A DNA stretch of 64,000 bases, taken from positions 2,963-66,962 of IMG/VR virus record IMGVR_UViG_3300031760_000051; one strand, given 5' to 3'. The position numbers and the translations under genes are program-made. The notes under the pieces were generated by a model. It was not told the DNA's origin, did not search any database, and worked only from the letters and a program-made list of their open reading frames with translations. Position 1 is the first letter of the stretch, and each line of letters opens with the position of its first letter. The stretch is from a virus. This document shows positions 25,609 through 25,836 of this stretch, piece after piece.

Positions 25609-25836
25609 AAGAAAAGTGACAGTCCGCCAACCTCAGATGACCCTTCCGTATTCCTCGTTGTTAACCCGTGTACGAGCTACCTTACATTACAGCCCTGTTT
25701 TAAGCTGCAGATCAATTCGCCTTTCGAATCATAATATACCGTATTGTTTAGTATATATGGTCGTACACCACATAGAGAATTTAAATATACGTTTTAACTA
25801 GTGGATCCCCATTTGAGGAGTCCACGTCCTTTTCTC
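25609..25836 (-). ncRNA. About 228-nt multi-hairpin non-coding RNA of unknown family
   Basis: Starts at motif copy 20; 5'/3' closing stem GAGAAAAG-GAC/GUC-A-CUUUUCUU followed by a U run; six or seven internal hairpins; no SD-led ORF. Confidence 0.65.

Follow-up and report, generated by a model that had tools for sequence, protein, structure and literature searches.

What does a phage carry between two promoter motifs where no gene can be read? The question is raised by positions 25609-25836 of a 64,000-nucleotide stretch of viral DNA, referred to here as the window, which comprises bases 2963-66962 of the IMG/VR record IMGVR_UViG_3300031760_000051 (66,962 bp, estimated complete). The phage is a 67-kb siphovirus of the bovine gut. 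An initial annotation, made from the letters of the window, had assigned to the minus strand of this interval a stand-alone, highly structured noncoding RNA of about 228 nucleotides (nt) with a promoter motif of its own, expressed early and belonging to an undescribed class. The computational analysis reported here leads to a more restrained picture. The interval is a real, well-delimited gene-free cassette, and it is both orphan and accessory. Its best explanation, which we hold to be about equally likely to be right or wrong, is that 25836 to 25609 represents an accessory, swappable, self-terminating noncoding transcription unit without a gene. To judge from its signals, the unit is probably transcribed.

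Coding capacity and promoter motif

No open reading frame (ORF) of at least 20 codons lies on the gene strand between copies 20 and 19 of the promoter motif, which border the interval. Stop codons occur in all three frames from 25836 to 25609, and the longest frames beginning with ATG or GTG comprise 14 codons, none of them with usable Shine-Dalgarno (SD) spacing; this bears out the original observation that the interval lacks an SD-led ORF. The interval also stayed closed when a hidden ORF was sought in six frames under translation tables 11, 4, 15, 16 and 25, while the remaining genes of the phage are read without difficulty under table 11. Both results speak against a tiny protein gene with an unusual start or code. 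A decayed gene gained no support from tblastx and short blastn searches against relatives and the masked genome, whose best E value was 0.52.

The motif was described by a position weight matrix (PWM) grown from 11 clear copies. A scan of the window detected 22 copies on the minus (gene) strand, with scores ranging from 24.0 to 38.6 bits, as opposed to a single copy on the plus strand. The consensus reads TTCGCGTAAAAtTCAyc.cCTTTAATG and is followed by a purine-rich start. All 22 copies are located between window positions 26594 and 1341, a section comprising the small-gene array, the replication genes and the polymerase region, and none accompanies the structural genes. This distribution fits a non-structural, plausibly early expression, in agreement with what had been proposed for the interval. 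Copy 20, which precedes the interval, is one of the 22, and with the U run at the opposite end it confirms that the interval has a phage-type promoter motif and a U-run end of its own. The strand bias is found again in the closest complete relative, G001 (65,382 bp; collinear, with 66-83% DNA identity in most blocks and a polymerase that is 81% identical), which has 21 copies on one strand and none on the other. In the first 50 kb of phage FP_oengus the PWM finds a variant form of the motif in seven copies versus none.

In copies 3883, 4500, 8813 and 24011 an SD sequence starts directly after ..AATG. If transcription began seven bases behind an ordinary -10 box, this SD would be truncated; we therefore place the putative RNA start at the G that follows AT. 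The predicted 5' ends behind copies 26594, 24910, 24389 and 1341, two of which were folded, open with a helix exactly at this G. A start with ATGAG was considered as a mark of RNA units and abandoned since it is not exclusive to them: five motif copies begin in this way, and two of these lead to genes.

Predicted structure

The first 11 nt of the predicted RNA pair with the 12 nt before the U run and thereby form a closing stem, P1 (GAGAAAAG-GAC with GUC-A-CUUUUCUU; Table 1), just as the initial annotation had it. The duplex of the 11-mer and its 3' partner reaches -10.1 kcal/mol, a value matched by only 4 of 9,564 14-mers of the genome. The minus strand folds at -63.4 kcal/mol (z-score -3.40; 0 of 200 shuffles as good) and the plus strand at -48.4 kcal/mol (z-score -2.31; 4 of 200 shuffles as good). 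This strand specificity is due to G.U pairs, which had been recognized from the outset as favouring the minus strand.

The list of inner hairpins put forward originally was right in part. P2, P4, P5 and P6, all of which had been named, are found in the ensemble, together with P7; the other predicted pairs of the RNA have probabilities of at most 0.22. By contrast, the AUAC/GUAU hairpin cannot form as it would have a 1-nt loop, CUCGU/ACGAG is displaced by P7, and GUCA/UGGC is absent from the minimum free energy fold. A kissing contact between the loop regions of P4 and P7, consisting of an 8-nt perfect complement with a GUAC core (25761-25768 and 25668-25675), was dropped because about 0.4 such complements are expected by chance in 228 nt.

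Table 1. Features of the interval, its surroundings and related loci. Positions refer to the window unless another sequence is named.
Feature	Position	Strand	Remarks
Predicted 228-nt noncoding RNA body	25609-25836	minus	without ORF; fold; without Rfam or tRNA match
Motif copy 20 (TCGCGTAAAA..CAC..CTCTCAT)	25837-25865	minus	PWM 26.6 bits; TCGC at 25861; predicted start G 25836
P1 5' strand (GAGAAAAGGAC)	25826-25836	minus	pair probability 0.95-0.97; begins at predicted first base
P2 hairpin (GUGGA../..UCCAC)	25801-25825	minus	stacked on P1; probability 1.00 and 0.69
P4 hairpin (UAUGUGGU/ACCAUAUA)	25754-25774	minus	probability 0.71
P5 hairpin (GAUUCG/CGAAUU)	25714-25730	minus	probability 0.93
P6 hairpin (UGCAGCUU/GGGCUGUA)	25688-25709	minus	three G.U pairs; probability 0.95
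P7 hairpin (UAGCUCG/CGGGUUA)	25662-25679	minus	probability 0.84; excludes CUCGU/ACGAG
P1 3' strand (GUCACUUUUCUU)	25609-25620	minus	with the U run has the form of an intrinsic terminator
U run after P1	25598-25608	minus	downstream border of exchanged module (X11 diverges below 25606)
Motif copy 19	25572-25600	minus	PWM 38.6 bits; TCGC at 25596; directly after U run
87-aa membrane-protein gene	25534-25271	minus	from ORF list; driven by motif copy 19
Terminator hairpin and T run ending cassette A	25878-25907	minus	terminator scan, stem 25907-25889; upstream border of exchanged module
Cassette A	25875-26059	minus	motif copy 21, ~150 nt without listed ORF, then terminator
228-aa protein gene with N-terminal tag (Pfam DUF7211)	26592-27278		
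56-nt closed two-hairpin unit	24364-24309	minus	between motif copies 24389 and 24310; z-score -3.56
72-nt Y-shaped element	1245-1316	minus	behind motif copy 1341; homologue in G001 (L016:1095-1165)
975-aa polymerase gene	genome bases 371-3298 (L007); first 336 bases are window 1-336	minus	last gene of record
158-nt gene-free unit of G001	L014:17361-17518		z-score -3.77
70-nt gene-free unit of G001	L014:17535-17612		behind TCGCGAGAAAATCACACCCTATTATGAGAAGG; z-score -2.15

The strand preference of the fold also bears on the possibility that the interval acts as DNA, be it as an origin, a packaging site or a small mobile element. Part of the interior is AT-rich and contains one pair of 14-nt direct repeats (79% alike, 51 nt apart) and small palindromes, which would suit such an element, and so would the movement of the unit between phages that is described below. 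Yet no iteron-like arrays or tandem repeat units were found in the interval, the markedly better fold of the transcribed strand stems from G.U pairs, and families of introns or ribozymes gave no match. We regard a DNA-level element, and likewise the tiny protein gene dealt with above, as very improbable.

No known RNA family accounts for the interval, which agrees with the failure to match it by eye. Rfam 15 at gathering score returned no match in the whole window; with the threshold relaxed to E ≤10, the surrounding region 25400-26100 (701 bases) yielded five matches, all with E values of at least 4.8 and none overlapping 25609-25836. ARAGORN found no tRNA or tmRNA gene in the window.

Several functional types were considered and rejected. 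The longest perfect complement of the RNA in the sense strand of the phage measures 11 nt and is no longer than in shuffled RNAs, 300 of which had longest complements of 10 nt (9 cases), 11 nt (111), 12 nt (115) or at least 13 nt (65). Duplex energies against 21 promoter-proximal 5' regions gave z-scores between -1.25 and +2.49, and none stands out. With no extended complementarity of this kind, a type I antitoxin or an antisense RNA directed against phage messages was discarded. A type III (ToxI-like) antitoxin was discarded as well, since in place of tandem repeats there is only the one imperfect 14-nt direct repeat pair. The six GGA motifs counted by eye compare with about four expected from composition, and a CsrA-type sponge was dropped. 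Finally, a riboswitch or 5' leader was rejected in view of the U run and the full promoter copy before the next ORF, and of the absence of a match to an aptamer family.

Exchange of the interval between phages

The stretch was found in bovine-gut metagenome runs (24 rows from 11 studies, one possibly being the source). Contigs of four of these runs (X2, X3, X4 and X11) were compared over 23900-27300, runs X3-X24 having small shares only. The most informative contig, 4,464 nt long and derived from bovine-gut DNA (X11), corresponds to 25606-25898 except for 5 changed letters and 12 missing ones, the latter (3 + 9) located just upstream of the promoter, and is unlike the window on both sides of this segment. 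The shared piece corresponds exactly to the upstream terminator, the promoter, the RNA and the U run. Beyond the U run, the loose end of the contig is another promoter-like motif in the sense of the RNA; in the upstream direction, 920 other letters lead up to sequence matching the beginning of the 228-aa gene, where the tag is encoded. Thus, promoter, RNA and U run together constitute a discrete module that is present in at least one other phage and absent from others.

The surroundings of the module are extremely mosaic among bovine-gut relatives throughout the array 23900-27300, with break points at terminator-promoter junctions. Fifty-six other letters connect 24393 with 26108 in a 10.6-kb contig of X4 (DNA), and 25235-25872 is replaced by 1,430 letters. 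Contigs of X3 (DNA) diverge at 25600 and 25876. In G001, the region 37336-39705 holds no counterpart of the array (window positions 23719-27280). The lack of an ORF, the motif, the pairing of the ends, the U run, the module borders and the absence from relatives are all results obtained in silico.

Proposed model and weight of the evidence

Based on these data we propose the following model. The unit would be part of a swappable array of small promoter-to-terminator cassettes that is placed between tail/lysis and replication genes. Its private promoter motif, most likely read by or with the YonO-like polymerase of the phage, would start an RNA at G 25836, whose first 11 bases would pair with the 12 bases before the U run such that the RNA closes on itself. 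The closed RNA would then end its own transcription at the U run, directly followed by the next promoter, and an RNA of ~228-235 nt would be released. Since a helix enclosing five or six hairpins would hold both of its ends, this RNA should resist exonucleases. The unit would move between phages as a module that the nearest relatives are without. Of this model we commit ourselves only to the mechanics in cis, comprising the promoter, the stem that closes the RNA, its self-termination and its release as a small, protected molecule. Given that no antisense target was found, our best guess is that the RNA binds or titrates a protein of the host or the phage; such a trans-acting, protein-binding role is the likeliest function, if there is one. 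The roles as a decoy, an anti-defence RNA or an antitoxin mimic that had been suggested initially are conjecture.

The metatranscriptome run X2 is represented by contigs of depth 2-7, which cannot show starts, ends or levels of RNAs and whose library possibly includes DNA. Contigs of 100% identity cover 24454-24858, 25354-25541, 26184-26339 and 26343-26493. None extends over 25609-25836 or cassette A, and in contig data uncovered parts are not evidential.

A number of results weigh against a functional RNA of the kind proposed. Transcription, the predicted start and stop sites and an action of the RNA in trans are what we infer from the features listed above. A blastn search in its 'distant' form against 50,697 phage records (INPHARED) yielded no match to the candidate, and exact and degenerate patterns derived from it had no occurrence in IMG/VR, in JGI metagenomes or in GTDB genomes. 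Loci of relatives were reached through neighbouring or conserved proteins and then inspected by blastn/nhmmer, by BLAST on the records and with a covariance model; in the blastn/nhmmer and BLAST comparisons the candidate matched itself only. The covariance model, which was built from one sequence and hence has little reach, retrieved from 172,799 bases of relatives the candidate itself (309 bits), followed by a partial match with an E value of 0.028. It had no match in a Clostridia metagenome-assembled genome (MAG) that contains two polymerase relatives, and one partial match at chance level (E value 0.046) in 151 genomes of the order of that MAG. As no homologue was found in any collection searched, the notion of an undescribed class is not supported: there is no class behind a single sequence.

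The stability of the fold is likewise less telling than it seemed. As a control, 97 windows of 234 nt were taken from the same strand across the genome and compared with 30 dinucleotide shuffles each. Their mean z-score is -1.05 (standard deviation 1.6); 17 of them have a z-score of -2.5 or lower and 10 reach -3 or lower, compared with -2.9 for the candidate (100 shuffles). Its stability is therefore ordinary, within about the top decile, and does not by itself set the candidate apart. The RNA does fold better than its dinucleotide shuffles (z-score -3.4 or -2.9, depending on the run), as expected from the initial annotation, but not beyond the genome background, and the term 'highly structured' was an overstatement. 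Three of 21 other purine-rich transcript starts pair equally well with the 3' strand of P1, and the complementarity of the ends is in part obtained for free since purine-rich transcript starts find pairing partners rather easily in the pyrimidine-rich terminator tails of this phage. Copy 20 is the only one of the 22 motif copies with a C three bases before the start G, and its score is in the lower third. The candidate is absent at the equivalent place in G001 and in the phages represented by X3 and X4. With its 98% identity, the copy in a second phage attests to recent exchange and not to selection.

These points have to be considered along with the view that the interval is an empty cassette or a recombination scar, in which a promoter came to lie next to a terminator-like tail and the interior was left over; the interval would perhaps be transcribed, into an RNA without a function of its own. 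The highly mosaic nature of the array, evident from the X4 and X3 junctions and from the lack of shared DNA in the G001 array, is compatible with this view, as are the absence of the candidate from the closest relatives, the ordinary stability of its fold and the ability of other transcript starts to pair with the same tail. In addition, ordinary terminators of the phage have rising strands similar to the 5' strand of P1 (..AAAAGGAC), as in the one behind the 87-aa gene (AAAGGAC.../...GUCCUUUU), and the neighbouring cassette A resembles a gene with a damaged or unusual start. Several features of the interval are difficult to reconcile with a scar. The tblastx search uncovered no trace of a former coding frame. 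Five confident hairpins and G.U pairs specific to one strand, within an interior of 200 nt, are not expected of a terminator loop or a random leftover, and 228 useless bases are rarely kept in compact phage genomes. Moreover, the unit was passed on intact with its own promoter, as seen in X11, and the succession of promoter, closed RNA, U run and promoter recurs in the 56-nt unit of this phage and in the 70-nt unit of G001. On balance we consider a scar unlikely, albeit not so much that it could be set aside; like the cis-acting terminator discussed below, it is a serious rival of the noncoding transcription unit.

Related units in this and other phages

The two short units just mentioned are the closest parallels to the candidate. 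G001 has two consecutive gene-free units (158 and 70 nt) directly after a shared 96-aa gene, at the place occupied in our phage by the tagged 228-aa gene. In the 70-nt unit a stem joins the first nine bases to the nine that precede the U run, and the next promoter follows directly. The 70-nt unit and the 56-nt unit resemble the candidate in the promoter subtype (TCGCG.AAAA...ATGAGAAGG-like), in a closing stem whose 5' end is the predicted first base, in inner hairpins, in a U- or pyrimidine-rich tail and in the promoter directly thereafter. They differ from it in being three to four times shorter and in having unrelated interiors, so that only the ends are alike. When six gene-free units were compared by pairwise local alignment against shuffles, the candidate and the 70-nt unit proved to be alike at their 3' ends (p about 0.025), with unrelated interiors; the only other similarity beyond that of shuffles concerned the terminators of cassette A and of the 158-nt unit. 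A third relative (L019) has gene-bearing cassettes only. A variant copy of the 56-nt unit exists, as a contig of X4 covers 23900-24393 with 17 other letters.

The Y-shaped 72-nt element behind motif copy 1341 is conserved in G001, where its closing stem is GAGAGGA/UCCUCUC as compared with GAGGAGAGAUA/UAUCUCUCUUC here. An alignment read by eye contains two two-sided changes and one one-sided change in this stem. The conservation, seen in a sister element and not in the candidate itself, supports the assumed start as well as a role of 5'-closing stems that is under selection. Since the element is followed by a ribosome-binding site, not by a U run, it probably serves the nuclease-polymerase operon as a 5' leader. 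Within it lies an ORF of 11 codons that has a good SD sequence. FP_oengus has a hairpin and a U run in the corresponding position ahead of its nuclease and polymerase genes, and hence such promoter-proximal stems appear to be used in cis in this phage group.

This leads to the alternative that the candidate, too, works in cis, either as an oversized terminator or insulator against read-through from upstream or as a regulated leader or attenuator for the 87-aa gene. P1 and the U run form regardless of whether the RNA begins at copy 20 or farther upstream, and what the candidate has in common with the 70-nt unit of G001 is limited to promoter, closing stem and U run; the hairpins right after the promoter of the nuclease and polymerase genes in FP_oengus, with its U run, and in our phage fit in with this. 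A leader is not needed, however, where a promoter as strong as copy 19 lies between the candidate and the 87-aa gene; the ordinary terminators of the array measure only 20-50 nt, and riboswitch or leader families gave no match. A purely cis-acting element therefore strikes us as distinctly unlikely.

A precedent for stable-RNA genes under this class of promoter comes from FP_oengus (NC_047916.1), where a motif copy at 2909 abuts a tRNA-like gene at 2935-3006 (ARAGORN 'tRNA-???', with an abnormal anticodon loop). Like the noncoding unit proposed here, it is a stand-alone structured RNA gene with the same promoter class, located in an early small-gene array of a phage with a polymerase of the same family. 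In contrast to the candidate, which is three times longer, it folds into a cloverleaf recognized by ARAGORN. The gene is not among the features listed for NC_047916.1.

It is tempting to speculate even further that the 228-nt RNA, the 56-nt unit and the 70-nt unit of G001 together represent a single new kind of phage RNA gene with a common frame of promoter, closing stem and U run. Such RNAs would be made early by an injected YonO-like polymerase and would carry swappable hairpins as a cargo that disables host proteins, for example defence or RNA-decay factors. We think it improbable that this extended scenario holds.

Comparison with known systems

Small noncoding transcripts that are set by a promoter and a nearby intrinsic terminator are familiar from the genome of phage lambda, where oop RNA acts by antisense pairing and the 194-nt '6S' transcript from pR' is a leader extended by antitermination. 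The candidate shares this general layout. It differs from oop RNA in that no antisense target was found in the phage, and from the pR' transcript in that it is followed by a separate promoter.

The architecture of the array recalls the PeSL cassettes in the hyperplastic regions of T4-type phages, which are small units bounded by a conserved composite promoter-terminator motif (PMC2839356, PMC4122927). Units of those arrays are inserted, deleted and replaced at the motifs between close relatives, as in our phage. In keeping with such cassettes, the candidate has a motif at its 5' end and a stem plus U run with an adjacent promoter at its 3' end, and it is present, absent or replaced among relatives. 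PeSL units normally carry a gene, whereas the candidate carries only RNA structure. Furthermore, the promoter found here is a non-sigma-70 signal of ~30 nt accompanying a YonO-like polymerase, and the host phylum is a different one.

Noncoding units in swappable phage cassette arrays are a known kind, and the candidate sequence belongs there. If made and functional, the RNA would join a very small number of noncoding RNA genes that are attributed to the transcription system of phrog_4291/YonO-like polymerases, and the unit, which measures less than 300 bp from promoter to terminator, would be a compact template for in vitro work on the start and stop signals of the polymerase. At present the main value of this cassette of an uncultured rumen phage is that of an example of how the arrays of these phages are built and exchanged.

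The YonO-like polymerase and neighbouring genes

All long ORFs of the window are on the minus strand. Matches to PHROG families include terminase, portal, head protease/capsid, a 2,612-aa tape measure protein, a 1,416-aa primase-polymerase and a helicase. The last gene of the record encodes a protein of 975 aa that, over its whole length, has a match to phrog_4291 ('RNA-dependent RNA polymerase') with an E value of 0. Its match to the RNA-dependent RNA polymerase family of Pfam is weak and below cut-off (E value 0.0067). A DFDGD motif was spotted by eye in its translation (..SGADFDGDTVMV..), and helix-turn-helix (HTH) and sigma-70 region 4 matches are located in its C-terminal part. The N terminus has an HYG..W.SG tag (DUF7211-like), and a tag of the same kind heads the 228-aa protein. 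We conclude from these features that the phage belongs to the group with a YonO-like two-barrel RNA polymerase, and therefore a private promoter is plausible.

According to PMC5467207, YonO of the Bacillus prophage SPbeta is a genuine phage RNA polymerase; its promoter and possible cofactors had not been defined at the time. As described there, it is a single-chain two-barrel enzyme, like the polymerase of our phage. The latter differs in being in the separate phrog_4291 group and in having HTH domains and the N-terminal tag, and it is known here from its sequence alone; no solved relative was found by sequence. Its relatives in cultured phages (42-50% identity) are encoded by phages of Arthrobacter, Gordonia, Streptomyces, Rhodococcus and Lactococcus and by the Faecalibacterium phage FP_oengus. 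A limited literature search for noncoding RNAs or promoters of the phrog_4291 polymerase group retrieved no report.

Two distinct relatives of the polymerase (52% and 55% identity) are encoded on two contigs (L021 and L022) of the one uncultured Clostridia MAG mentioned above. One of these contigs is 65,404 bp long, which is about the size of a phage genome. The relatives are a possible clue to the host, or they may represent binned phage DNA.

Next to the candidate, cassette A has an SD sequence (GGAGGTG) at normal spacing before ATA instead of ATG, opening a frame of 32 codons (26019-25921, minus strand: IAVIFWVTLWPLAMIYVLCDDIKYWIKHKDED). This frame may encode a small hydrophobic peptide with a rare start, akin to small membrane toxins or holin-like peptides, or be a gene with a broken start.

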